Translations under genes and position numbers: made by a program
Assembly: GCA_944393695.1 (NCBI GenBank)
Contig: CALYAY010000002.1
Location: 46,244 to 110,243, forward strand
DNA length: 64,000 nt
Direction: 5' to 3'
Source of the DNA: an uncultured Alphaproteobacteria bacterium
Lineage (GTDB): Bacteria; Pseudomonadota; Alphaproteobacteria; RF32; CAG-239
Shown here: one piece after another, positions 1,612 to 63,448 of the stretch
How positions within the stretch are numbered: the stretch's first letter is position 1
Layout: every line of letters begins with the position of its first letter
Notes under the pieces: model-generated
What the model was told of the DNA's origin: nothing
Databases searched by the model: none
The model's input: the letters and a program-made list of their open reading frames with translations, nothing else

Positions 1612-2283
1612 TCAGGCGATTCCCAATACACTGTCGATTTTCTTGCTGACCGCCTCAATTGTGCCCGTCCCGTCCACACAACGCAACAATCCCTTCTTTT
1701 CAAAATAAGGAATTGTCGGATAGGTCAGAGCCCGGTAATTAACCAGACGATTCTGCACCGTTGTCCGGTTATCATCCACCCGGCGGTAAAAATCCGTTCC
1801 GCCACAAACATCGCAAACCCCGTAAATCTTTGGTTTTTGAAACTTGTCATGATAACCGGCACCGCACTTCATGCAGGCATAACGCCCCAAGATACGTTCC
1901 ATAATAATCTCATCGGGAACCTGTATCTCAATCACCGCATCAAGACTGATCCCTCTCTCGGCCAGCATCTTGTCCAGAGCCTCGGCCTGAGGCAGCGTCC
2001 GGGGAAAACCGTCCAGAATAAAACCGTTCTGGCAGTCTTCCTCATCGATTCTCTTGGCCACCATGTCAATAATCATCTCATCGGTAGCAAACTCACCCCG
2101 GTCAAGCAGGGCTTTCATTTCCAGCCCCAACGGCGTTGCCTTGGCAGCTTCCGCCCGCAGCATTTCTCCGGTTGAAAGATGCGGAATAGATAATTTCTCT
2201 TCCAGGATTCGCGCCTGAGTTCCCTTGCCGCAGCCGGGAACCCCGGTAAAGATAATATGCCGTCCTCTGCCGTTCTTATCCAT
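1612..2283 (-). CDS. adk: adenylate kinase with zinc-binding lid
   Basis: 223 aa. P-loop GxPGxGKGT, lid with CMKCGAGYH...CDVCGG (CxxC..CxxC). The secY-adk-rpsM order is typical of alphaproteobacteria. Confidence 0.9.
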   Translation of the reverse strand: MDKNGRGRHIIFTGVPGCGKGTQARILEEKLSIPHLSTGEMLRAEAAKATPLGLEMKALLDRGEFATDEMIIDMVAKRIDEEDCQNGFILDGFPRTLPQAEALDKMLAERGISLDAVIEIQVPDEIIMERILGRYACMKCGAGYHDKFQKPKIYGVCDVCGGTDFYRRVDDNRTTVQNRLVNYRALTYPTIPYFEKKGLLRCVDGTGTIEAVSKKIDSVLGIA

Positions 2284-3635
2284 TAGCGTTTTTTCCCTTT
2301 GTTGGCCAGAGCTGCTTTTTTAATCAGCCCTTCATATTGATAAGCAATCAGATGCGACTGCAGTTGTCCGACAAAATCCATCGTCACCTGCACCACGATG
2401 AGCAGCGTCGTTCCGCCCAAGACAAACGGCACCGACAGCTTGGAAATCAGGATTTCCGGCAAAATGCACAAAGCCACCAGATAAACGGCCCCCACCACCG
2501 TCAGACGGGTAATGACATAATCCAGATATTCCGCCGTATTTTTTCCGGGACGGATACCGGCAATAAAACCGCCGTGTTTTTTCAGATTATCCGCCGTTTC
2601 TTCAGGATTAAACACCACCGCCGTATAAAAGAATGCAAAAAACGCGATTAAAAAGGCATACAGTGCCAGATACAACGGCTGCCCGTGTCCCAGCAGCTGG
2701 CTCAGAGTCTGCACCCATTCCGGCCCGTTTTCTGCCGACAAATTGGCAATCGTAATCGGCAACAGCAGCAGCGAGCTGGCAAAAATCGGCGGAATAACCC
2801 CCGTCGGATTAATTTTCAACGGCAAATGCGAACTTTCCGCCGCCGTCATCCTCATCCCCATCTGGCGTTTCGGATATTGAATAATAACTTTGCGCTGAGC
2901 TCTTTCAACAAAAACAATAACATAAATCAGCACCAGCACCATAACCATCAGCAGGGCAATCAACCCCAGCGACATTGAGCCGACGCGTCCCAGTTCAAAA
3001 GTCTGAGCCAGCGCCGTCGGAATATTGGCGATAATACCCACGGTAATGATTAAAGACGAACCGTTGCCCACGCCGCGCGAAGTAATCTGCTCACCCAGCC
3101 AGACGATAAACATCGTTCCGCCCACCAGCGAAACAATTGTCGTAAACTTAAACACAAATCCCGGATTCACTACTGCCGAGATTCCCGCGCTCCCGGTCAT
3201 GCTCTCCAGACCGACGGCAATACCGTAACCTTGCACAATTGTAATCAACACCGTCAGATAGCGCGTCATCTGGGTAATCTTGCGATGCCCGGCCTCACCT
3301 TCTTTTTTCAAAGCAGCCAACGACGGAACTACAGATTGTCCCAGCTGAATAATAATGGATGCCGAAATATAAGGCATAATGTTCAGAGCAAAAATGGTCA
3401 TACGTTCCAAAGCGCCGCCGGCGAACATATTAAACATTCCGAGGATTCCGCCGGAATTTCTTGCAAAAATGTCCGACAAAACATGCGGATCGATTCCCGG
3501 CAGCGGAACAAACGTCCCCAGACGGAAAACAATCAAAGCAAAAACCGTAAACCACAATCTCTTTTTCAGTTCTTCAGCTTTGCTGAAAGCCCCGAAATCC
3601 ATATTCGATGCCATTTTTTCGGCTAAAGATACCAT
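2283..3635 (-). CDS. secY: preprotein translocase subunit SecY
   Basis: Multi-TM protein with conserved SecY blocks. The ORF is open to 3668, but an AAGGA SD precedes Met-12 (MVSLAEKMASNMDFGAFSKAEELKKRLWF...), so the start is placed at 3635. Stop overlaps the adk start. Confidence 0.9.
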   Translation of the reverse strand: MVSLAEKMASNMDFGAFSKAEELKKRLWFTVFALIVFRLGTFVPLPGIDPHVLSDIFARNSGGILGMFNMFAGGALERMTIFALNIMPYISASIIIQLGQSVVPSLAALKKEGEAGHRKITQMTRYLTVLITIVQGYGIAVGLESMTGSAGISAVVNPGFVFKFTTIVSLVGGTMFIVWLGEQITSRGVGNGSSLIITVGIIANIPTALAQTFELGRVGSMSLGLIALLMVMVLVLIYVIVFVERAQRKVIIQYPKRQMGMRMTAAESSHLPLKINPTGVIPPIFASSLLLLPITIANLSAENGPEWVQTLSQLLGHGQPLYLALYAFLIAFFAFFYTAVVFNPEETADNLKKHGGFIAGIRPGKNTAEYLDYVITRLTVVGAVYLVALCILPEILISKLSVPFVLGGTTLLIVVQVTMDFVGQLQSHLIAYQYEGLIKKAALANKGKKR

Positions 3636-3821
3636 TTCTATATCCTTATTATTCAATTTAAAAAACATAATCCGGGCACAAAAACCCTTTAAGCTAAGAT
3701 ATTAATACACTAAAAATTTTTTAATTCAACCCTTTTAATAAGGCTTTGGCATAATTTCTTAATAAAAAACGGCGAAAGAGATTTCCCTTCCGCCTGACTG
3801 ACTTTTTCCAGCCGTCTAATT

Positions 3822-5813
3822 CTAAAACTCGATCACCGGCCGGACGTCATACTCTTTATCTTTCTGCGGATAATTGGTTAATCCGTATGTTCCGCCGAAA
3901 AACGACCTCCAGGCCCCCAGATCGGCCGTATATTCCGTTGACGTCCACAAGAAAGAATTACTCCCCAACTGCACACCACCGGCTCGTAAGAAACCGGCAT
4001 TAACAGCAGACATATTATTATTAATGCTGTACATAATTCCCGCCGCCGGCAGGCACCAGGCGCTCATTCCTCCGGCACTGTAACCGTCAGCCGCCCAGGC
4101 CGCCGGATAATGAAGATGATTTCCGGCATCAAGTATCTTATCCGTATTGCCGCAACTGTCAAAATCCCCGCTGGCCGCCGAAGCTGACCCGTATCCTGGT
4201 AAATCGCCGATATCTCCGTAATCACCCCACTGATATGCCCCAATAGACTTCAAAGCCATTGCCCAGCATATCTCTTTATCTCGACTCTTATATCTGTACA
4301 CCACAACGCCAACCGGAGTTTTTCCGGAAACTTTTTCTGTACCGCAACTTCCGTCGCTGAAAAAAATATCTCCGATTTGACAATTCGCCGTACACCCTTT
4401 GTCTTCCTGCACAACCACCTTTTCGCAAATTCCGTTTTTCCAGACATATCCCGAGGCGCAACGGCATGACTGATATTTTCCGTCGCAGGATGAGCCGGAA
4501 CCGCCGGTTTCGTTGGCACCGCTGCAAGTATATTTATATGAGGAATCGCAGGTGCAGGTTTGAGAACTTGCATTCCAGACATAGCCCGACTGACAGCCGT
4601 TTTTGCAGTATTTGTTGGAACATTCCTCTTTCTTACAGGTGTAAGGGGATGGACATGAATCCATGGAACATTCATTGGGACAAGGTTTGCAGTTGTCATA
4701 TTTAATTTCAGTTCCCGATTGACAGGTGTTTGCGCCGGCTTCGGGCCCCATGCTGCCGCAATCCATATATCCCTCACAGGGATTAGGTTTGATTTTGTAC
4801 TTGGTCTTGCCGTCGCAGTCCAGACAAGCCTCGCCGTCTTGTACATAGCCTTCGGGAATGGTCGTATAATCATATCCCGCACCGCAGGGTGTACATTCAC
4901 AGGAAGCATATTTTCCGTCGCAGGCCTCTCCCACTCCATGATAAGGAGGCTCGCAAGTGACGTAATCACTGGGGCAAAGGGCCCGACAATATTCGAAATA
5001 ACGATTATCATACGGGCAGAAATTAACCGCCTCATATCCTTCTGGACAGGAGGTTTTCGTGTATCCTTCTTCTTCGCAGCGTTTCTCGTCATCAAGTTCA
5101 TAATCATCACCGCCGCCGGGAGGCACCCCGCCATTATCCTCATCGGCATTATTCCCAACAAACTCATTCCCGGAACAGTTGGTTATATCCGTCACAAAAC
5201 ACGCCGCCGCAAGTTGGATAAGATTGTTGTTGTCTCCCTCACCCTGCCCCTCTCCCCTCAAGGAAGAGGTATTTCTTTCAATGTCATACTCCAACTTGAT
5301 TGGAGTATCCAGGTCAGATAAAGCAGCTGATTTATTCCACCTGGATCCTCGGGTTAAACCCGAGGATGACTGTTTTGTTTTTTCTTCCCTCCCTAAAGAT
5401 TTAGGGCTGGAGGCAGAAAATATCTCCGACGGAGATATTTTCAACGACAGGCGAGAGTTTGTTAACTCATAAGCTAGCGGCAGCGAAGCGAAATGAGCGT
5501 TACAAACCGAATGACCGCAGCGACTTAGTGTTGCCCTTCCGGCAACACTTACGGAGCCAGAGGTAAGGGAGGGTTTGAAACCCTCTCTGTCTCTCCCTGA
5601 GTTTTCAGGGAGAGTAAGTTCGGCAAAATCTTCAAGTGAAGACAAATGTCCGGCCGTGAGGTGTGAAGTGTGTGTAGAAACATGTGATTTAAGCAAAGCC
5701 GGACTTAATGACAAAGGCGTATCATCAGGATTAAAACCAGCGTAACACAAATCAGCTCCGGCAATGAAGGGCATGCACGAAACCGACAACATGAGAACAG
5801 TCTTATTCATCAT
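3822..5813 (-). CDS. Secreted Cys-rich protein with a DUF1566/Lcl-C-like C-terminal domain; its N-terminal linker is built from palindromic repeats
   Basis: The ORF is open to 5849, but its paralog at 61996 starts at the homologous MMN... and shares the upstream motif ATAAGATTCGTGAAGACAA, so the start is placed at 5813. Signal peptide, many Cys (CP.GY..C, CEPPY.GVGEAC.GKYASCE), C-terminal block WCLPAAG...WTST...VRPVIEF resembling DUF1566 (family name from memory). Inserted between secY and rplO. Confidence 0.7.
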   Translation of the reverse strand: MMNKTVLMLSVSCMPFIAGADLCYAGFNPDDTPLSLSPALLKSHVSTHTSHLTAGHLSSLEDFAELTLPENSGRDREGFKPSLTSGSVSVAGRATLSRCGHSVCNAHFASLPLAYELTNSRLSLKISPSEIFSASSPKSLGREEKTKQSSSGLTRGSRWNKSAALSDLDTPIKLEYDIERNTSSLRGEGQGEGDNNNLIQLAAACFVTDITNCSGNEFVGNNADEDNGGVPPGGGDDYELDDEKRCEEEGYTKTSCPEGYEAVNFCPYDNRYFEYCRALCPSDYVTCEPPYHGVGEACDGKYASCECTPCGAGYDYTTIPEGYVQDGEACLDCDGKTKYKIKPNPCEGYMDCGSMGPEAGANTCQSGTEIKYDNCKPCPNECSMDSCPSPYTCKKEECSNKYCKNGCQSGYVWNASSQTCTCDSSYKYTCSGANETGGSGSSCDGKYQSCRCASGYVWKNGICEKVVVQEDKGCTANCQIGDIFFSDGSCGTEKVSGKTPVGVVVYRYKSRDKEICWAMALKSIGAYQWGDYGDIGDLPGYGSASAASGDFDSCGNTDKILDAGNHLHYPAAWAADGYSAGGMSAWCLPAAGIMYSINNNMSAVNAGFLRAGGVQLGSNSFLWTSTEYTADLGAWRSFFGGTYGLTNYPQKDKEYDVRPVIEF
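5282..5640. repeat. Mosaic of short palindromic repeat units lying inside the 5' coding region of the 3822-5813 gene
   Basis: 5282-5371 is near-identical to 63121-63209, and 5387-5530 to 61491-61632. Hairpin units include GGATCCTCGGGTTAAACCCGAGGATG, CATACTCCAACTTGATTGGAGTATG, CCCTCCCTAAAGATTTAGGGCTGGAGG, GTTGCCGGAAGGGCAAC, GGGTTTCAAACCC, CTCCCTGAGTTTTCAGGGAG. Confidence 0.8.
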
Positions 5814-5839
5814 AATAGCACCTCTGTTATTAATTACAT

Positions 5840-5858
5840 TTGTCTTCACGAATCTTAT
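5840..5858 (-). promoter_or_regulatory. Conserved upstream motif ATAAGATTCGTGAAGACAA shared by the two Cys-rich family genes (copy 1)
   Basis: Identical 19-mer about 25 nt upstream of the MMN start here and at 61956-61974. Confidence 0.45.
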
Positions 5859-5962
5859 AATAACAGAAAATTTGAGCGTTGTAAATCACTATTTTAATCT
5901 AAAGACCATAATTTAAACTAAAAATGAGGTTCCTTTTCGAAACCTCATTTTTTCTAAACATC

Positions 5963-6290: not shown

Positions 6291-6752
6291 TTACGCAATA
6301 GTAACCTTGCCGCCGGCTTTTTCAACCGCGGCAATCGCTGCCTTGGAAGCCGAATTAACGGTAATGTTAATACTTGCCGTCACCGCACCGCGGGCCAGCA
6401 AACGAACACCATCCAGCTTCTTGCTGATAAGGTTCGATTTCAACAAATTTTCAACCGTAATCTCATTCGCAGACAACTTGCCGGCATCAATAGCCTTCTG
6501 AATGGTATCCAGATTAACAACGGCAAAAGTCTTGGCGAAATGATTTTTGAAACCGCGTTTCGGCAGTCTGCGGTACAAAGGCATCTGCCCGCCTTCAAAG
6601 GCGTTAATGGCAACACCGGAACGAGCTTTCTGGCCTTTCTGTCCCTTACCGGCAGTTTTTCCTGAACCGCTGCCGATACCGCGGGCCACACGCTTACGGC
6701 TCTTTCTGGCGCCTTCATTATCTCTGATTTCATTAAGTTTCATTGTGTTCAC
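6291..6752 (-). CDS. rplO: 50S ribosomal protein L15
   Basis: 153 aa, Gly/Lys-rich N-terminus ([20 protein letters not shown]) typical of L15. Confidence 0.95.
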
Positions 6753-9807: not shown

Positions 9808-10128
9808 TTACTTATCGATTACTTCACCGGACTTACGAGCAACACGGACTTTTTTGCCGTTCACTTCTTTATAGCCGACTTTGGTTGCCTTATTGGTCTT
9901 GGGATCAACAATGGCAACATTGGAAACATGAATCGGTGCTTCTTTGGTAATAATGCCGCCGGTAGTAGTTTGGCTGGGTTTGGTGTGTCTCTTAACCAGA
10001 TTAACACCCTGAACAACCACTTTACCTTCCTTCGGCATGGCTTTAACAACCTCACCGGTTTTGCCCTTGTCGTCACCCGACAGAACAATAACCTGATCAC
10101 CTTTTTTAATTCTAAGTTTAAGGCTCAT
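9808..10128 (-). CDS. rplX: 50S ribosomal protein L24
   Basis: 106 aa, [21 protein letters not shown] (KOW motif). Confidence 0.95.
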
Positions 10129-16590: not shown

Positions 16591-17268
16591 TTACATCAAA
16601 TTGTTTTGCACCAGATAGTTATGTGCCATAACCTTAATCAGCTCCTTAGGCATAGGCGCGTTCTTTTCATTTCCGACATAATTTCGCACCTGTTCTTTGG
16701 TATCATCCGGCAAAGGCAAAAGTTCCGCCTTTGTTACCAAGGGAACATCTTGTTCGGCATCATTGCTAAAACACCAAACGCCGTTTTTCTTCATCAGCAC
16801 CAAAAGGGCCAAAAAATAGCCGCAGTCTTCATAAGCGAACGAAAGCGTAAAAACAAATACATCCGGCCTTATGCGAACAACTTTCTTGCCACCCTCCTGA
16901 GTTTCAATCCAAGAAGTTTCCTCATTGAGCGAACTTTTCAAAATAAGGCTTTTTTCAATATCAACCTTATCCCAATCAATACGCTTTTTCACTTCGGAAT
17001 GATGTTCCACATCCCGAGCAAAAATCGCCCAACCAAGCGCACGCATATAATCTTTAACCTCACGCCCGAAATAAACGGACTTAGGAGCTTTTGATAAAAG
17101 CTGTTGTCCTATTTCAAGCTCTTCTTTAGATAATGCATACACCGCCTCATGAACCTCCAAACGGTCAAACTGATGTTTTTTAAGCCAAGCATAAGCCTTA
17201 TCCGATGCATCATATCTCCGCCGAAGCGAACATTTTTTTACAAACAATTTTTTGATAAATCCAGTCAT
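16591..17268 (-). CDS. hypothetical protein (225 aa), unrecognised
   Basis: Complete ORF with no SD. Located in the rpsJ|tuf insertion. Confidence 0.5.
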   Translation of the reverse strand: MTGFIKKLFVKKCSLRRRYDASDKAYAWLKKHQFDRLEVHEAVYALSKEELEIGQQLLSKAPKSVYFGREVKDYMRALGWAIFARDVEHHSEVKKRIDWDKVDIEKSLILKSSLNEETSWIETQEGGKKVVRIRPDVFVFTLSFAYEDCGYFLALLVLMKKNGVWCFSNDAEQDVPLVTKAELLPLPDDTKEQVRNYVGNEKNAPMPKELIKVMAHNYLVQNNLM

Positions 17269-17504
17269 AATTATAAGTTTAAGTTAATAATAAATTTTAT
17301 CGCTCCCACCTTATACGACGCCTTCACTTTTGTCAATAGACAAAACCACACCTTTCAACCCCTCACAGAAAAACGCAAAGAGAAAATCCCCTTGCGCCGC
17401 AATAAAATTATCAATAGCAATTTCTTGATAATTCAAATGATTAAGCTTTGCAATTTCTTGTACAATTTGTAGGCTCAAAGATAACACCTATTTTGTTTTC
17501 ATCA

Positions 17505-18176
17505 TCACCTCCTTAATACCTTCTTTGCCCAAAACATCGGCCGCCAATGACGGCGAACATAAAACACAACCAGCAGCCCATATAAAAGCCCAAGCCCCCA
17601 TAATCCCCAAAAACGCAAATCCCGGCCGTCCCATTCCCGGGTAATTTCATTCACGTTCAGAGCACTGCCCTTAATTTCAATTCCTGTCGTCGGCTTCTCG
17701 TGCAACACCGCAACCGCAATCTGATACTCAGGATTCAACAGATCAAAATTTATCAGCAGCTCGCCTTCCTGCTCGGTTAAAGAGGCGGTAATTGCCTCGG
17801 TTGTTTCCGTATTATCCAGAACAAAATGCACCATACCCGCCTCTTCCGGCACCACAATCCGGATCGGATCATGCCCCGGCTTCGAAACATCCCGTCCGGA
17901 CAAAGCCTGTTGTCCGTAATTGCGCAGATAAACCTTTGTCTGATATAAATCCTTATATTCCTTTCCCTTAACCGTCACTTTATATTGGTTCTCATTGGCC
18001 GAAGAAATAAAAGACACACTCTGCGTATCATATTTCAAAATCGGATTATTGATATATGCCAGATACCAGGCCAGCACGATTGCCGACACCCCGATGATAA
18101 AAGCCCCGGTCTGACTGGTCCAAAAATTCCAAAAAGCTCTTGCCGCATAACGGACTTTCGTTGCAAAATGCGTCAT
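17505..18176 (-). CDS. hypothetical bitopic membrane protein (223 aa; N- and C-terminal TM helices flank a ~150-aa domain)
   Basis: Good SD (ACGGAGGA - 4 nt - ATG). Hydrophobic segments AFIIGVSAIVLAWYLAYI and FWGLWGLGLLYGLLVVFYV. Confidence 0.55.
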   Translation of the reverse strand: MTHFATKVRYAARAFWNFWTSQTGAFIIGVSAIVLAWYLAYINNPILKYDTQSVSFISSANENQYKVTVKGKEYKDLYQTKVYLRNYGQQALSGRDVSKPGHDPIRIVVPEEAGMVHFVLDNTETTEAITASLTEQEGELLINFDLLNPEYQIAVAVLHEKPTTGIEIKGSALNVNEITREWDGRDLRFWGLWGLGLLYGLLVVFYVRRHWRPMFWAKKVLRR

Positions 18177-18217
18177 TTTTTCCTCCGTTTTTTAGAGCTA
18201 TATAATCATTTTTAAAT

Positions 18218-18247
18218 CAAAAAAAAGAGTCTTCTTCAGACTCTTTT
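18218..18247 (-). terminator. Rho-independent terminator after the 210-aa gene
   Basis: Minus strand AAAAGAGTCTGAAGAAGACTCTTTTTTTT. Confidence 0.5.
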
Positions 18248-18261
18248 CATTTAACATCTCG

Positions 18262-18894
18262 TTAAAACAGTGAAATAATTTGCTGACCGTCGAACCCCAG
18301 ACTTGCCGCGGTTTTCCAACACTTGGGAAGTTGCGCACGCCAGTCATCTTCTTCAAAGGGAATTTCAATCAGACTGTCACTCTGCACACCATACTGCCGG
18401 TAAATTCCGCCATCCGAAACAAACAAGTTGCCATAAGCATTAACAAAAATTTCCGCACAAGAATTCAATTGCGGAAAACAACATGTCAGCTCATGCCCGT
18501 CAACACTGCTGAACGCCTTTACCTGAAGCAGATCAAAGACATCATCCTGAAAAAACATCTGCCTGACAACAACACAGGCGGCAAAAACCACGGCCGAATC
18601 AAGCAACCAGATACCGGCATCTTCCGCAAACTCGCATCCAACCAGCAAGCGGCGCCTCCCGTCAGAAGTCTTTTTCACGACCAGATACGTACTTTTCCCT
18701 TCCTTGCCCTTTGAAAAACTAAAAACATCAATATCTGCGCTTTTAGCCACCGGGTTGCATTCAGAAAGAATAACTTTTTCGGCAAAAGCTTCCGCCACAC
18801 AATTTACCGCCACGAACAAACGGCAGTCATCCGACATCAACACCAGGCTCTCAGGTTCGGCACAGTTTTTCCAAGTTTTTATAACTTTTTTCAT
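18262..18894 (-). CDS. hypothetical Cys-rich cytoplasmic protein (210 aa), unrecognised
   Basis: Complete ORF, 11 Cys, no signal peptide. First gene of the rpsJ|tuf insertion on the minus strand. Confidence 0.5.
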   Translation of the reverse strand: MKKVIKTWKNCAEPESLVLMSDDCRLFVAVNCVAEAFAEKVILSECNPVAKSADIDVFSFSKGKEGKSTYLVVKKTSDGRRRLLVGCEFAEDAGIWLLDSAVVFAACVVVRQMFFQDDVFDLLQVKAFSSVDGHELTCCFPQLNSCAEIFVNAYGNLFVSDGGIYRQYGVQSDSLIEIPFEEDDWRAQLPKCWKTAASLGFDGQQIISLF

Positions 18895-43259: not shown

Positions 43260-43817
43260 TTATTCTCCCTCCAGATACATCACCGGCCGGACATGACATA
43301 ATTCTCCGCCGCCGTAAATGTCCGAGGAAGCGTTGTCAAAACCAATAATCCATGGTGCAATACCCGGTCCTCTTTTTCCGCTTGCAGTATCGGCCCAATA
43401 ACCTTTATGGTCTGTTTTTATAGCCACCAAGGGTTTCCCGCCGACACTTTCCAGCTTTTGATTCAGAGCCTCAAAATAAGGTGCAACCTTTTGCTCCAAA
43501 CCGGCACGTGGCAAGGTAGTTGCTCTTCCTGCAATTTCAACCTTACGGCAATAATCACAGGCCCGGTCAAAATTCATCAGAGTATCAGCATCCTTCAGTG
43601 CAAAAACCACCAGGCCGCAGCGCACTCCTTCAATTTTTCCGTTCTCTCCGCGATAAGGCTCAATCAATTTTCCGAGGTCAACATTTTTTTCTTCGTTTTT
43701 GGGTTCTTTGAACTGTACTTTTGTCACAGTTTTCTTTCCGAACTTTTCAAACAATCTGTCGGCAAACACTCCGGCAACAAAAGAGACAAAGCTGGTAAAC
43801 AAAATTTTTTTATCCAT
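43260..43817 (-). CDS. Secreted/anchored single-domain DUF1566/Lcl-C-like protein
   Basis: 185 aa. N-terminal hydrophobic anchor. C-terminus TLPRAGLEQ...YWADT...APWIIGFDN...CHVRPV is homologous to the VRPV(I/L)EF-ending domains at 3822 and 49130. Lies on the opposite strand between ftsA and ftsZ. Confidence 0.55.
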   Translation of the reverse strand: MDKKILFTSFVSFVAGVFADRLFEKFGKKTVTKVQFKEPKNEEKNVDLGKLIEPYRGENGKIEGVRCGLVVFALKDADTLMNFDRACDYCRKVEIAGRATTLPRAGLEQKVAPYFEALNQKLESVGGKPLVAIKTDHKGYWADTASGKRGPGIAPWIIGFDNASSDIYGGGELCHVRPVMYLEGE

Positions 43818-48729: not shown

Positions 48730-49076
48730 CACAAGCCCGGCCTCCGGGCTTTTTTCTTTCCTCTCATCCCCATCCTCTTTTCCTCACCCTCCTTTCTTCA
48801 TGCCACCCTCAGTCTCTTCTCTTTTGTCATCCTCGGGTTAAACCCGAGGATCCAAGTAAAAAAATCATCCTTTTATCCTCCCCTAAAACATTAGCCCCCT
48901 AACTTATTCTCCCCCTATAGTTATAGGGGGAATTAGAGGGGGTATGGCAATGTCATCCCTCGTTCAGCGTCAGTCTGAACGTCAGGGGATCTTCCTTATT
49001 GCCCTCTCCCCTTTCAAAAGGGGAGCCGGTGGGGTCAAATATCAGCCGCTTTTCTCACCTCTCCTCTCAAGGGTGA
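48730..49076. repeat. Intergenic cluster of the same palindromic repeat family upstream of family copy B
   Basis: 48826-48853 is the CCTCGGG..CCCGAGG hairpin. 48951-49047 is near-identical to 61693-61788 (hairpins CGTTCAGCGTCAGTCTGAACG and CTCCCCTTTCAAAAGGGGAG). Also CCCCCTATAGTTATAGGGGG and CACCTCTCCTCTCAAGGGTGAGG. Confidence 0.8.
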
Positions 49077-49129
49077 GGATATAAGGAGAAACAAATATTA
49101 TTAACAACTAATATAAAAGGAGAAAGGTT
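49077..49129 (+). promoter_or_regulatory. Duplicated 5' leader/RBS region of the DUF1566-like genes (copy at 63395-63448)
   Basis: GGATATAAGGAGAAACAAATATTATTAACAACTAATATAAAAGGAGAAAGGTT then ATG. Near-identical at 63395-63448. Confidence 0.5.
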
Positions 49130-49945
49130 ATGAAGAAGATATTATTGGCGAGTGTCGGAATTATAATAAGCACAGGAACAACATATGCCGCGTGTATCCC
49201 GACGCCGAGTTGTTCAAGTTTGGGATATGAAAGCTCCTCATCCTGCGAGGGCGGGCTCAAATGTCCGTTCGGCAATGCCTGGAACTGCACTTTGGTAAAC
49301 AAAATTACTGAAATCACTACCGAGATAACCGAAATCAAAAAAGTGATTGAAGAAGGCGGTGTCGGAGGTGGTAATAAAAACTGCCAGATTGGAAACATCT
49401 ATTATTCTGACAAAACCTGTTCTGTATCTTTGGACAGTTCCAAAACCCCGATTGGCGTGGTGGTTTATGTCGATGGCCAGGGACATGGGCAAGTGATGGC
49501 GTTGAAGTCAATAGGTAAGAATCAATGGGGATCAACGAATGTTGATATTCCGACCTTGACTAACTTTAGCAGTGATGAAAGTGCGAGTTACGATTTGAGC
49601 AGCTGTGCTAATACCCAGAAGATTATGACAGCCGGTGATAAGAGTACTTATCCGGCGGCTTGGGCGGCACACGAGTATAAAACCGAGGGAACGGAAGCCG
49701 GTGACTGGTGCCTGCCAGCAGCCGGTGTATTTACTTCATACTACAATAATCAACAGTTGGTTAATATCGGTATGACGAACGCCGGAGGCACTCAGATAGG
49801 TGAGTATACCTATATCTGGTCGTCTTCCGAATGCGGTAGCGGCAACGTGTGGACCTCGGATTTCCGCCACGACTACGGGGTGAGCGACGGCTATGGCAGT
49901 AAGCTTAGCAGAGGCAACGAGGTTCGACCGGTGCTGGAATTTTAA
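49130..49945 (+). CDS. Secreted DUF1566/Lcl-C-like protein (family copy B)
   Basis: 271 aa. Signal peptide, short Cys-rich N-terminus, C-terminus DWCLPAAGVF...IWSSSE...EVRPVLEF. 5' region and upstream 53 bp nearly identical to the gene at 63449. Confidence 0.7.
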   Translation: MKKILLASVGIIISTGTTYAACIPTPSCSSLGYESSSSCEGGLKCPFGNAWNCTLVNKITEITTEITEIKKVIEEGGVGGGNKNCQIGNIYYSDKTCSVSLDSSKTPIGVVVYVDGQGHGQVMALKSIGKNQWGSTNVDIPTLTNFSSDESASYDLSSCANTQKIMTAGDKSTYPAAWAAHEYKTEGTEAGDWCLPAAGVFTSYYNNQQLVNIGMTNAGGTQIGEYTYIWSSSECGSGNVWTSDFRHDYGVSDGYGSKLSRGNEVRPVLEF

Positions 49946-57121: not shown

Positions 57122-57292
57122 AAATAATATGAATAAAACGTAAAACATAAAAATTAACAATCTCGTATTTATGGATACTACTCTACAAAATTTTTGTCAA
57201 CACATATTTTTAAATTTATTTAATTTCTTGCCGATTGCAGCAAGAAACGGCCAAAGAATTTGCCAAAACAAATAAGATTTTTAATAAAAACA

Positions 57293-57343
57293 AAAAAACC
57301 GCCCTTTCGGACGGCCTTTTTAATTGGAGCGGGCAATGGGATT
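57293..57343 (-). repeat. Direct-repeat copy 1: tRNA-Gly 3' terminal 20 nt plus its downstream terminator
   Basis: AAAAAAACCGCCCTTTCGGACGGCCTTTTTAATTGGAGCGGGCAATGGGATT is identical to 57470-57520. Confidence 0.8.
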
Positions 57344-57469
57344 GGCTTCGCTTCGTTTCGCCGCACGGGCGCTCATCAGCTTCGCTGACCGCGATACTCC
57401 CGTCTCGCTTTCGCTGGTTGTCGGACCACTCCTTCGTGGGTCCAAATCCGTTGCCGCTTTACCAATAAA

Positions 57470-57520
57470 AAAAACCGCCCTTTCGGACGGCCTTTTTAAT
57501 TGGAGCGGGCAATGGGATTC
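57470..57520 (-). repeat. Direct-repeat copy 2: native tRNA-Gly 3' end and terminator
   Basis: See copy 1. The hairpin GGCCGTCCGAAAGGGCGG plus T-run acts as a terminator on the minus strand. Confidence 0.8.
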
Positions 57521-57575
57521 GGACCCACGACATCAACCTTGGCAAGGTTGCGCTCTACCCCTGAGCTATACCCGC
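57501..57575 (-). tRNA. tRNA-Gly (anticodon GCC)
   Basis: Minus strand reads GCGGGTATAGCTCAGGGGTAGAGCGCAACCTTGCCAAGGTTGATGTCGTGGGTCCGAATCCCATTGCCCGCTCCA. Confidence 0.88.
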
Positions 57576-61289: not shown

Positions 61290-61955
61290 TTTCCTCTTAA
61301 AGCTTACCCGCCAACTATAAAAAAAAGATTAATCTGCTGCAAAATTTCCTGTTTCTGATTTTTCTCCCTGAAAACTCATCCTCTCTCCCGTCATCCCCAC
61401 CCTTTCCTTCTTTATGTCATCCTCGGGTTTAACCCGAGGATCCAGGTCAAACCTATTATCCTCCCCCCTAAAACCTTTTCTCCATATTTCCCCTCCCTAA
61501 AGTTTTAGGGCTGGAGGCAGAAAATATCTCCGGTGGAGATATTTTCAACGACAGGCGAGAGTTTGTTAGCTCATGAGCTAGCGACAGCAACGCGAAATGA
61601 GCGTTACAAACCGAGTGACCGCAGCGACTTAGCAAACGCAGTGAGCTTAGGAGCCAGAAGGTCGGGAAGGGTTTCACATTCAAATAAAAACTGTCATCCC
61701 TCGTTCAGCGCCAGTCTGAACGTCAGGGGATCTTCTTTATTGCCCTCTCCCCTTTCAAAAGGGGAGCCGGTGGGGTTAAATATTAGCCTTATATCCTCTC
61801 CCTCACCCACGTCACTCCGTTCCGCGACCTCTCCCCTCCCTAAAGACTTAGGGAGGGGTTGGGGAGGGTTTCATTCATACTCAAATAAAACCCCGTCCAT
61901 TTTCCCGTCATTATATTTAAAATATACATTGATTATTTGTAAAATATCTGCTAAT
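61290..61955. repeat. Palindromic repeat cluster (with a relic gene 5' fragment) upstream of the 61996 gene
   Basis: Contains copies of units seen at 5344-5371, 5387-5530 and 48951-49047, plus CCCTCCCTAAAGACTTAGGGAGGGGTTGGGGAGGG. The minus-strand ORF at 61468-61683 is the translated repeat. Confidence 0.8.
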
Positions 61956-61974
61956 ATAAGATTCGTGAAGACAA
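61956..61974 (+). promoter_or_regulatory. Conserved upstream motif ATAAGATTCGTGAAGACAA (copy 2)
   Basis: See 5840-5858. Confidence 0.45.
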
Positions 61975-61995
61975 CAACAAGACAAAGGTGATATT

Positions 61996-63057
61996 ATGAT
62001 GAACAGTAACAAAGCATTATTGCTTATTTCAGCATCAGGGCTGCTGCTTATGCCCTGCGGCATATCTTTGGCAGCTTATTTGCCTCAGTCATCTCTTCCG
62101 GATGCGATTACATCTGTCTATAACACACACTTCACACACACCTCTCACCCGGGGGAAGTGTTGTTGTCTTCTGCCTTTTATCCTCTCCCTGAAAACTCAG
62201 GGAGCTCTCTATTCTACCCCCTCCCTAAAAACTTAGGGAGGGGTTGGGGAGGGTTTCACAACACCACCCTTATCCAACTCGCTGCGACTTGTTTTGTGAC
62301 CGATACCTCGGCCTGTTCGGGCAACGAGTTTTCCGGCAATAATGCCGATGATGACGGACATGGTGCTCCCGGCGGTCCCGGAGACGGTGACGATTATGAG
62401 CTTGATAATAAAGAGCGTTGCAATAAAGAGGGCTATTATCTGACTTCATGCCCGGACGGACAAGAGGGTTCAGGTTTCTGCCCCTATGACAACGGTTATT
62501 TCGAAAAATGTGTTTCGTCCTGTCCTTCAAATTATGTGACCTGTGAACCGCCTTACTATGGCGTGGGTGAGGCTTGTAACGGTAAATATGCCTCTTGTGA
62601 AAAAGACACTGAGCGCGCCTGTCAGGAATTAAACCCCGGTTATGTCGATGAATGCGGCACCGGACAACAATTAAGCGATGACAGATGTTCTTATGATAGC
62701 TCTTACGGCACCTGTTGTAATACTTGTGAGGGTTACGATAACACCACTATTTCCGAGGGCTATGTGCAAGACGGCGAGGCCTGCACCGGCTGCGACGGTC
62801 AGGAACATTATAAGATAAAACCCAACCCGTGTGACGGATTTATGGACTGCGGCTCCATGGGCGGCGAAGCCGGAGCGAAGACCTGCCTGTCGGGGACAAC
62901 CACCATGTACGACAATTGTAAGGCCTGTCCCAACTTGGGAGAATACACTACCTGTCCGAGCTGTACCATATGCCAGTATGAAGAATGCTCCGGTCTGTGG
63001 TATGCCACCGGCTGTGCCACGAATTGTACGGATTATTGTGACTTCTGCGGCGGGTGA
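61996..63057 (+). CDS. Secreted Cys-rich protein homologous to the N-terminal two-thirds of the 3822-5813 protein; lacks the DUF1566-like domain
   Basis: 353 aa. Signal peptide. Shared blocks THTSH, LPENSG, LIQLAATCFVTD, CSGNEF, DDYELD, FCPYDN.YFE.C, CEPPYYGVGEAC.GKYASCE. Same upstream motif ATAAGATTCGTGAAGACAA. A palindromic repeat is translated in-frame as PLPKNLGRGWGGFH. Confidence 0.65.
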   Translation: MMNSNKALLLISASGLLLMPCGISLAAYLPQSSLPDAITSVYNTHFTHTSHPGEVLLSSAFYPLPENSGSSLFYPLPKNLGRGWGGFHNTTLIQLAATCFVTDTSACSGNEFSGNNADDDGHGAPGGPGDGDDYELDNKERCNKEGYYLTSCPDGQEGSGFCPYDNGYFEKCVSSCPSNYVTCEPPYYGVGEACNGKYASCEKDTERACQELNPGYVDECGTGQQLSDDRCSYDSSYGTCCNTCEGYDNTTISEGYVQDGEACTGCDGQEHYKIKPNPCDGFMDCGSMGGEAGAKTCLSGTTTMYDNCKACPNLGEYTTCPSCTICQYEECSGLWYATGCATNCTDYCDFCGG

Positions 63058-63394
63058 GGGGATTGCTGCTTATTTCCTCGCCCTTGAGGGGAGAGGTAAG
63101 GAAGGAGGAAAAGTAAACACTGTCATACTCCAACTTGATTGGAGTATCCAGGTTAGATAAAGCAGCTGTTTCATTCCACCTGGATCCTCGGGGCAAGCCC
63201 GAGGATGACAAAGAGAGAGGGTGAGGATGGCAGAGAAAGAAAGGAGCCGGGAATGACATTGTCCCTTTTACCTCTCCCTTGAGGGGAGAGGTCGCGAAAC
63301 AGAGTGACGCGGGTGAGGGTGAAGAAAAAGCCCCCCCCTCCAACTCCCCCTAAGATTTTAGGGGGAGGGGGTAGAGCCCTAAGGTTTTAGGGAG
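63058..63394. repeat. Palindromic repeat cluster between the 61996 gene and family copy C
   Basis: CCTCGCCCTTGAGGGGAGAGG, the 63121-63209 composite unit, CCTCTCCCTTGAGGGGAGAGG, CCCCCTAAGATTTTAGGGGGAGGGGG. Confidence 0.8.
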
Positions 63395-63448
63395 AGGATA
63401 TAAGGAGAAAAAATATTATTAACAACTAATATAAAAAGGAGAAAGGTT

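Follow-up and report, generated by a model that had tools for sequence, protein, structure and literature searches.

How can a run of palindromic repeats of a non-coding type come to be read, in frame, as a segment of a protein? The question is raised by the gene at 3822–5813 (the 3822 gene) in a 64,000-nt stretch of an uncultured alphaproteobacterial genome (CAG-239 lineage; assembly GCA_944393695.1, contig CALYAY010000002.1), here called the window, in which a first-pass annotation had noted a block of hairpin units within the open reading frame (ORF). We propose, with a probability of roughly 0.75, that these units form a mosaic resembling the bacterial interspersed mosaic elements (BIMEs), and that the mosaic is tolerated in a disordered tether of an adhesin-like protein, with selection removing the alleles that fall out of frame. 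Until now, in-frame palindromic elements have been regarded chiefly as a peculiarity of Rickettsia and of a few genomes rich in repetitive extragenic palindromes (REPs); here, this class of element builds a whole protein segment (up to 129 residues) that is polymorphic among close strains from gut metagenomes.

The Repeat Block Lies Inside the Open Reading Frame

The mosaic lies within the ORF and keeps its frame (Table 1). Its bounds were set against homologs in which the site is empty (P0007, P0014, P0023, P0026, and P0047), which read ..LSSLEDF-NK-GDNKLVQLAAACFVTD. The first-pass annotation was right that an in-frame insert exists, but its bounds (5282–5640, about 135 aa) are replaced by 5238–5624 and 129 codons; it had also taken LPENSG for a conserved flanking block, whereas this motif is encoded by the hairpin at 5591–5614 and is missing from the empty-site homologs. 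The description of the block as consisting only of hairpins holds: the RNA fold of 5230–5660 (minus strand) has an energy of −181 kcal/mol, vs. −128 ± 5.5 for dinucleotide shuffles (z = −9.55; 0 of 100 shuffles equal), and comprises 11 separate stem-loops that cover 311 of the 431 nt. The read-through in frame is equally clear, with 0 stops in the gene frame and 3–10 in the other five, and the gene frame was open in just 0.165% of 20,000 dinucleotide shuffles of the mosaic segment. Peptides encoded within this linker include CGHSVCNAHFASLPLAYELTNSR, ISPSEIFSASSPK, and SAALSDLDTPIK.

Table 1. Positions of the mosaic, its units and copies, the inverted repeats, and the host genes in the window.
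Feature	Position	Strand	Reading and remarks
In-frame repeat mosaic	5238–5624	minus	387 nt, 129 codons (AELTLPENSG...SSLRGEGQGE); bounds from empty-site homologs
Untagged stem-loop CTCTCCCTGAAAACTCAGGGAGAG	5591–5614	minus	Read LPENSG; copies at 62183–62204 and, in part, 61363–61378
Untagged stem-loop GAGGGTTTCAAACCCTC	5569–5585	minus	Read REGFKPS; motif in 29 of 88 homologs
Composite E153 (TCTGGCTCC...CTGCCTCCAG)	5407–5561	minus	155 nt; hairpins 5527–5549, 5456–5508, 5413–5445; encodes SGSVSVAGRATLSRCGHSVCNAHFASLPLAYELTNSRLSLKISPSEIFSASS
Stem-loop CCCTCCCTAAAGATTTAGGG(AGGG)	5386–5411	minus	Read (L/S)PKSLGR; arm split by E153; one open frame per strand
CGTC-type REP A, aGTC-ATCCTCGGG-TTTAA-CCCGAGGAT-CCAGG	5339–5372	minus	Read SSSGLTRGSRW; copies at 48826, 61416, 63184
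CGTC-type REP B, tGTC-ATACTCCAA-CTTGA-TTGGAGTAT-CCAGG	5283–5314	plus	Inverted relative to REP A; read LDTPIKLEYD
REP dimer	5279–5372		REP A + REP B + spacer hairpin 5309–5344; tags outward; 92% copy at 63118–63209
Stem-loop CCTCTTCCTTGAGGGGAGAGG	5249–5269	minus	Read TSSLRGEG; related copies at 63269–63291, 63082–63096
Inverted repeat, right arm	5636–5649		mRNA sense ACATTTGTCTTCAC; codons ..HLSS..; 12 nt upstream of mosaic
Inverted repeat, left arm	5836–5849		5′ untranslated region; mRNA sense GTGAAGACAAATGT; perfect 14-nt pair with 5636–5649
Host gene (3822 gene), coding sequence	3822–5813	minus	663 aa + stop; mechanical ORF reaches GTG at 5849
Paralog	61996–63057	plus	353 aa; mosaic insert 62173–62259 (29 codons); inverted repeats 61967–61979 / 62159–62171
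Intergenic mosaic	48760–49090		Upstream of head-only gene 49130–49945
Intergenic mosaic	61330–61905		Upstream of paralog promoter; stops in all six frames
Intergenic mosaic	63058–63405		Between paralog stop codon and head-only gene at ~63450; REP dimer copy 63118–63209

Units of the Mosaic

The untagged hairpins at 5591–5614, 5569–5585, 5386–5411, and 5249–5269 have G/C stems and A/T loops. The first of these is also used in a second frame, in which it reads LSLKTQG (P0100, P0119, and P0121). The composite element E153 is open in two of its six frames, one per strand: its forward peptide occurs in 8 of the 88 homologs surveyed (see below), and three proteins (P0053, P0123, and P0129) carry ..LVLPFQQHLRSQT, matching the reverse-frame reading ..LVLPFRQHLRSQ. 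E153 is nested, in that it interrupts a hairpin that is left whole in the syntenic loci L002 and L003, where the E153-free allele has the intact form CCCTCCCTAAATCTTTAGGGAGGG. Its ends are constant in L131, at 61491–61650 of the window, and in L133, in which it stands downstream of a tRNA with a different right flank. E153 lacks the ~15–30 bp terminal inverted repeats and the target-site duplication of a miniature inverted-repeat transposable element, yet shows presence/absence with constant boundaries; its terminal inverted repeats (CTGG...CCAG) amount to 4 nt, and no consistent target duplication was seen at filled and empty sites. The homologous in-frame REP dimer of L135 has other stems (ATACTCCGG and ATCCTCGGA), with complete compensation.

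Rfam, applied to the whole window and permissively to 5200–5900, returned two tRNAs and one sub-threshold chance match, and no family for any unit of the mosaic. A distant blastn search of a plasmid collection with the mosaic gave no match, as did a scan of JGI metagenomes for a 20-nt core of E153.

The Tagged Units Are CGTC Repetitive Extragenic Palindromes

CGTC REPs have been defined by a terminal (T/C)GTC tag, for which CCTC is a further allowed variant, a stem of 8–9 bp beginning A-T, a loop of 4–5 nt, and a CCA tail (Di Nocera et al., 2013; PMC3733652). They predominate in Alphaproteobacteria, usually as dimers and with no known transposase; the superfamily takes in two Rickettsia palindromic elements (RPEs), RPE-4 and RPE-6 (= CGTC-4 and CGTC-1 REPs), and intragenic clusters encode 43–82 aa in Thauera and R. 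conorii (PMC3733652). Six elements, all within mosaics, were found when the window was scanned by structure (GTC tag, AT-initiated stem of 8–9 bp, loop of 4–6 nt, complementary arm): 5283(+), 5345(−), 48826, 61416, 63122, and 63184. Each of the six has a perfect 9-bp stem that opens with AT (ATCCTCGGG or ATACTCCAA), a 5-nt loop, and a CCAGG or CCAAG tail. Five carry the allowed tag variant TGTC and one (5345−) AGTC; the canonical CGTC is absent from the window copies and common among the listed matches of the motif in reference genomes. Dimers with outward tags (5279–5372 and 63118–63212) are likewise found at many alphaproteobacterial loci (for example L012, L017, and L032).

The motif GTCATCCTCGG-N5-9-CCGAGGATCC recurs in at least 120 DNA stretches of reference genomes, mostly from Rhizobiales, Caulobacterales, and other Alphaproteobacteria; the listed matches have unrelated flanks, are frequently inverted pairs, and are mostly intergenic. 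Because the units at 5283–5314 and 5339–5372 agree with the definition of CGTC REPs, and the latter (REP A) has this widespread motif, they are, judged by sequence and predicted structure, members of that superfamily, and the earlier suggestion that the units form a distinct family is not sustained for them.

As a separate observation, small GIY-YIG nuclease genes adjoin CGTC-type REPs in 3 of the 120 listed loci (L010:3467–3850, L030:1500–2010, and L101:864–1200). In L010 and L030, inverted REPs with outward tags stand on both sides of the nuclease gene, and in L101 a copy stands on one side, a layout that resembles the arrangement of REP and transposase in GTAG REPs. A speculative possibility is that CGTC REPs are mobilised by such small GIY-YIG nucleases. 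No GIY-YIG gene was found in the window, and the literature searched held no paper combining GIY-YIG with repetitive extragenic palindromic sequences.

Variation Among Strains and Family Members

Between the window and its syntenic orthologs L002 and L003, the linker differs by indels of 153 nt (E153, missing in both), 57, 18, and 3 nt. Each of these lengths is divisible by three, each indel lies at a unit boundary, and the sequence outside the indels is nearly invariant. A second syntenic pair, L130 (P0014, empty) and L132 (P0013), differs by a 75-nt, 25-codon insert at the same position.

The homolog survey drew on the best 120 homologs, of which 88 have the CFVTD motif that follows the linker. 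In 78 of the 88, the N-terminal segment (signal peptide, THTSH, and LSS) is in the same ORF, and the spacer from LSS to CFVTD ranges from 17 to 145 aa (median 56); six more are divergent and intact, such that 84 of 88 are intact. Spacers are assembled from units in combination: LPENSG, LPKDLGRGWGGFH or LPKSLGREEK; REGFKPSLT; the 51-aa E153 peptide; SSSGLTRGSRWNKSAALSDLDTPIKLEYD or YSGLTGVSRSD..LDPRVKPEDD; TSPLRGEGQGEG; and LFVTLTRSLRSDLSPQGRG. The LPKDLG-type hairpin occurs in tandem, in 1–4 copies. The linker-length variation anticipated in the first-pass annotation is thus present, as unit-sized in-frame indels among strains and paralogs, and the shorter in-frame insert that it reported for the paralog was recovered (reading AFYPLPENSGSSLFYPLPKNLGRGWGGFH).

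The units are used in either orientation and in any frame that is free of stops. For example, REP A reads SSGLTRGSRW in the 3822 gene, and a REP with a near-identical stem, reversed, reads LDPRI(R/K)SEDD in other members; SSGLTRGSRW vs. LDPRVKPEDD is a further case of a changed reading. Because frame and orientation vary, stems change with compensation, and REP A is widespread and mostly intergenic, the behavior of the units, as read from the alignments, is that of DNA elements and not of peptide modules. The converse view, in which selection acts on the units as protein-coding repeats, with palindromy as a by-product and with the intergenic copies as remnants of decayed genes, is very improbable. 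Outside the genes, E153 and the REP dimer do keep the frame equivalent to that of the gene open, and all copies are close to family genes, as this view would predict, but identical DNA units give unrelated peptides in different frames and orientations, REP A is mostly intergenic in the alphaproteobacteria-dominated reference stretches, and the intergenic mosaics taken whole have stops in all frames.

Broken alleles are few (P0067/L124, P0100, P0179, P0180, and P0181). In L124, which encodes P0067, a deletion between CTTAC and CTTAT has removed the mosaic and put the body out of frame; the other four are frameshifted within the mosaic. Such a pattern is to be expected of a mutable region on which selection acts as a filter.

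A very different N-terminal signal segment (MSRIHQLYVSTFLLTLIPAAAYGG...) is present in two proteins, P0119 and P0121, where the same units connect it to the common ..QLAAACFVTD body, suggesting an exchange of N-terminal modules at the mosaic.

The Units Are Gathered at One Gene Family

The first-pass annotation reported the same units in intergenic clusters, and blastn-short of the linker against the whole window places unit copies only in clusters at 48.8, 61.3–61.9, and 63.1–63.3 kb and in the paralog linker (62183–62204). Two further matches are not unit copies: one is a 13-nt match within the 3822 gene itself, at 4363–4375 (E = 0.33), and the other is the arm of the inverted repeat at 5836–5849. 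Identity is 94% between 5387–5528 and 61491–61632 (the E153 copy) and 92% between 5279–5370 and 63118–63209, and the 32-nt unit at 5339–5370 recurs at 48826, 61416, and 63178. The cluster upstream of the paralog contains REP A (61416–61447), the E153 copy, a 97-nt block in common with 48951–49047, and, at 61833–61875, a hairpin plus GTTGGGGAGGGTTTCA that also forms the in-frame insert of the paralog. The blocks shared by the linker and the intergenic mosaics differ in order and orientation.

Every unit copy in the window is inside a family gene or within ~700 nt of one. The same holds in related contigs: the units of L130 (9666–9886) are just upstream of the gene at 10001, those of L131 (10216–10418) are in the linker, and those of L132 are at 85–250 and 556–639, with no units in the rest of these three loci (~47 kb in total). 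In L133–L136, all unit copies adjoin family genes, including the E153 by the tRNA. Apart from the family genes, no gene in the window or in the flanks of L130–L135 contained a unit, and the six REP copies in 64 kb are all at family loci, with none in the flanks of L130–L132 beyond the mosaics. A protein search with the linker peptide returned 10 proteins, which were family fragments and short ORFs without Pfam domains through the same units, and no other host family. Over the ~170 kb of lineage DNA scanned, the units are therefore only in or beside family genes, and the strong tie to one gene family proposed earlier is supported. Five more distant loci of the family, found in the JGI metagenome scan, are without these units.

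Two tRNA loci were observed alongside these searches. In the window, an exact 52-nt duplicate (57292–57343 and 57468–57519) of a tRNA 3′ end plus terminator surrounds a 124-nt GC-rich insert; the tRNA itself is at 57504–57575, on the minus strand. In L133, E153 is likewise bracketed by a ~55-nt direct duplication of a tRNA 3′ end plus terminator. Such duplications may represent small elements or scars of integrated elements.

A Probable Inversion Switch at the 5′ End

The inverted repeat of the 3822 gene (Table 1) has a counterpart in the paralog, a perfect 13-nt pair. In both genes the arms, 179–186 nt apart, enclose the ribosome-binding site, start codon, signal peptide, and THTSH..LSS segment; a promoter-like TTTACA-17-TATTAT at 5885–5857(−) is just outside the left arm. 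Inverted repeats of 9–14 nt (12–14 in close homologs) occur in ten loci of the family, and both arms change together (variants GTGAAGACAAATG, GAAGACAACAACA, CGAGAAAAGG, and GATGGCAAG). Comparison of L133:4566–4761 with its close relative L134:8800–9030 gives 91 nt outside the left arm at 91% identity plus/plus and the 189-nt interior at 94% plus/minus. In L133 the inverted segment joins precisely at the repeat, and the contig stops right where the other arm begins on its inner side; L124 begins inside the left arm. Inversion places a stop codon immediately before the body, which is left with neither start codon nor signal peptide.

From these features, the segment is probably an inversion switch of the partly intragenic kind. 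Our confidence in the switch is moderate because there is a single inverted example and no recombinase was identified; Pfam found no recombinase domain in the 20 window ORFs scanned. A search with the N-terminal segment for OFF-orientation ORFs ending in ..LSSRIL and a stop gave seven candidates, none of this form, and brought up the frameshifted alleles. The putative switch would mark the family genes as contingency loci, which may help to explain why repeats gather there.

The Host Gene, Its Protein, and Its Relatives

The ATG at 5813 is the called and conserved start, and the 663-aa product is identical to database protein P0001. The order of the protein is signal peptide, N-terminal segment, repeat mosaic, Cys-rich stalk, and C-terminal lectin-like head. 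AlphaFold2, run with a 75-sequence alignment, assigned a predicted local distance difference test score (pLDDT) of <50 to residues 1–238 (signal peptide, N-terminal segment, and mosaic), ~85 to the Cys-rich, beta-rich region 240–470, and >90 to the C-terminal domain 480–663. Neither the full protein nor its separate domains matched Pfam or NCBIfam down to E = 10, and the Lcl-like lectin identity of the head comes from structure comparison only (Legionella Lcl, structure 8q4e). The protein thus resembles a secreted adhesin made up of a tether, a stalk, and a lectin-like head. A lipobox reading of LAAAC at the end of the linker was considered and rejected, as no N-terminus is close enough to this motif and the residues before it do not form a hydrophobic region.

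This adhesin-like, apparently phase-variable gene is inside an otherwise conserved ribosomal-protein/secY cluster, between rplO (6291–6752) and secY (2283–3668). The placement is kept in three independent metagenome contigs, and the gene has its own promoter-like site, with a terminator at 5920–5952 upstream.

In addition to the paralog, the window contains a short, head-only paralog (49130–49945; 42% identity to the C-terminal domain of the 3822 protein) and a second head-only gene that starts at ~63450 and extends past the window end. Each has its own signal peptide and an intergenic mosaic before it. More distant loci of the family originate from human-gut metagenomes. The protein clusters to which the S5, L6, and adenylate kinase of the window belong contain entries named Azospirillum sp. 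47_25, Candidatus Scatocola faecipullorum, and 'Alphaproteobacteria bacterium', in agreement with an uncultured gut alphaproteobacterium as host; look-ups of SecY, P0099, and P0023 by exact sequence gave no record. A 185-aa ORF on the minus strand (43260–43817) has no Pfam match and ends ..YWADT..HVRPVMYLEGE; this end resembles the sequence pattern of Lcl/DUF1566-type heads and the VRPVIEF with which the family proteins finish, and the ORF may be a further, distant member. Elsewhere on the minus strand (16591–18894), three consecutive ORFs of 210–225 aa have no Pfam match and are mutually dissimilar; the region has the lowest GC of the window (38.5% at 16–18 kb).

Tolerance and Selection, and the Alternatives

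In the mechanism that we favor, a CGTC REP dimer, the 155-nt composite, and untagged hairpins would have piled up at one site, after the N-terminal signal segment and before the Cys-rich stalk, and the segment would be translated as a disordered tether. Because the tether is taken to be disordered, it could accept nearly any insertion, deletion, or duplication of units that is free of stops. Selection for the downstream stalk and head would purge frameshifted and stop-containing alleles, and only multiple-of-three, stop-free variants would persist, the outcome being variation in tether length and sequence among strains and paralogs over the range of spacers recorded above. New variants could come about by nested insertion into hairpins, by deletion between short repeats, and by exchange among the mosaics that flank family members; of these, a nested insertion is seen in E153, and deletion between short repeats in the L124 allele.

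Several points weigh against this interpretation. Translation of the mosaic is predicted from sequence, and the homolog set was produced by gene callers, which report open frames by construction. Where the alignment is gappy, a low AlphaFold confidence does not prove disorder. For CGTC REPs no transposase is known (PMC3733652), nor was one found in the window, so that units may move by transposition or may only be shuffled by recombination. Simple tolerance does not explain the near-exclusive tie to one gene family, and as the claim of association covers ~170 kb, dispersed copies are possible elsewhere.

A more ambitious proposal would join the mosaics and the inversion switch into a cassette for the programmed diversification of a family of surface proteins with lectin heads. 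In it, inverted repeats would toggle individual copies by flipping the start codon and signal peptide, and the REP mosaics on either side of the switch would serve as portable homology for exchanging tether modules or switch segments between paralogs. We regard this as speculative and on balance doubtful; if true, variants of tether length and sequence would arise at a rate far above background.

It is also unlikely that the primary role of the mosaic is at the DNA or RNA level within an expression switch and that its translation is incidental. Under such a role, the units might offer sites for architectural proteins that aid inversion, act as substrates on which paralogs recombine, or fold in the mRNA so as to adjust its translation or stability. 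The extreme folding energy and the restriction of units to family loci are in keeping with this, as is the geometry: the mosaic starts 12 nt past the right arm of the conserved inverted repeat, and in most of the family loci examined a mosaic is also just upstream of the promoter, so that the putative switch is bracketed by repeats. However, P0007 and P0014/L130 keep the inverted repeats with an empty linker site, and the 3822 gene itself has no upstream mosaic. Because empty-site genes retain the inverted repeats, the putative switch does not need the mosaic.

There is little to recommend the possibility that the repeats are untranslated and form a structured 5′ leader, with the protein starting downstream, which the first-pass annotation had named as the finding that would overturn its view. 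Many REPs annotated at the N-termini of ORFs are probably extragenic (PMC3733652), and the gene calls of P0067 and P0108 begin at or past the mosaic. Against this, the part downstream is a Cys-rich protein of extracellular type with no start codon plus signal peptide after the mosaic; 78 of 88 homologs conserve the N-terminal 60 residues (signal peptide and THTSH..LSS) in one ORF with the rest, whatever the length of the mosaic; the ortholog indels are all multiples of three; and P0067 is a frameshifted allele and not an alternative start.

Finally, that the mosaic is an artefact of metagenome assembly (collapsed or chimeric repeats) is scarcely credible even though contigs of relatives often break in or beside mosaics (L124, L133, and L135), given the same architecture, with E153 in the same position, in assemblies of other samples (P0008, P0077, P0086, P0095, and L131) and the clean, exclusively unit-sized indels of L002 and L003.

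On the favored reading of tolerance and selection, the family offers a natural series for non-coding selfish or structural DNA becoming protein, since dozens of paralogs and orthologs have the same site occupied and empty ones remain for comparison. The series also bears on whether tether length matters to an adhesin. Because CGTC REPs have no known mobilising enzyme (PMC3733652), loci with datable between-strain insertions are useful for finding one. The placement beside a likely inversion switch, in barely studied human-gut Alphaproteobacteria, suggests contingency loci.

Comparison With Known Systems

BIMEs of E. coli and the rhizobial intergenic mosaic elements (RIMEs) are combinatorial mosaics of REPs with short motifs, and are extragenic by definition. 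The variable combination, order, and orientation of units resemble these elements, which the three intergenic clusters of the window match; the likeness to RIME1/RIME2 is drawn by description. Unlike BIMEs and RIMEs, the blocks at 5238–5624 and 62173–62259 are within ORFs and are read as protein. The Legionella adhesin Lcl has a stalk with variable collagen-like repeats; its variable part consists of tandem collagen-like repeats, whereas here it is a palindromic mosaic of non-coding type.

Invertons have been reported in gut bacteria, including intragenic and partly intragenic ones (Chanin et al., PMC10028968). The comparison concerns the switch and not the mosaic: short inverted repeats at the 5′ end of a surface-protein gene, with both orientations in assemblies, are common to the two, but here the segment holds the ribosome-binding site, start codon, and signal peptide and not a promoter, the host is an alphaproteobacterium, and the recombinase was not identified.

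RPEs and the mosaic are alike as in-frame palindromic repeats in alphaproteobacterial genes that occur in more than one orientation or frame and are apparently tolerated (Ogata et al., 2000/2002, as summarised in PMC3733652 and PMC10969869). The RPE-like behavior proposed in the first-pass annotation therefore stands in part: insertion is in frame, the host ORF is intact in 84 of 88 homologs, and variation is unit-sized, but spread over many unrelated genes was not seen. RPEs occur in many unrelated housekeeping genes, usually with one element per site, whereas the mosaic occupies a single hot spot in one surface-protein family, with up to ~10 units (129 codons). Its bearer, a free-living bacterium of the gut, is not a Rickettsia, and the link to RPE-4 and RPE-6 is made via the statement of PMC3733652 and not by sequence comparison.

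A further resemblance is to CGTC REPs (PMC3733652), with which the tagged units share the tag, 9-bp AT stem, 5-nt loop, CCA tail, dimeric arrangement, alphaproteobacterial hosts, and occasional intragenic clusters. The genome-wide dispersal of REP families was not seen in the DNA examined here. Compared with CGTC REP clusters, the mosaic is longer (129 aa), has untagged hairpins and the composite mixed in, is polymorphic among strains, and occupies the same site across paralogs. In-frame palindromic repeats (RPEs), intragenic GTAG and CGTC REPs, and clusters of 43–82 aa are of an already known kind. In the literature searched, a single hot spot in one paralogous surface-protein family and a combinatorial insert of 129 codons appear to be new, as do strain-level presence/absence with empty sites, the host lineage, and the place by a probable inversion switch.

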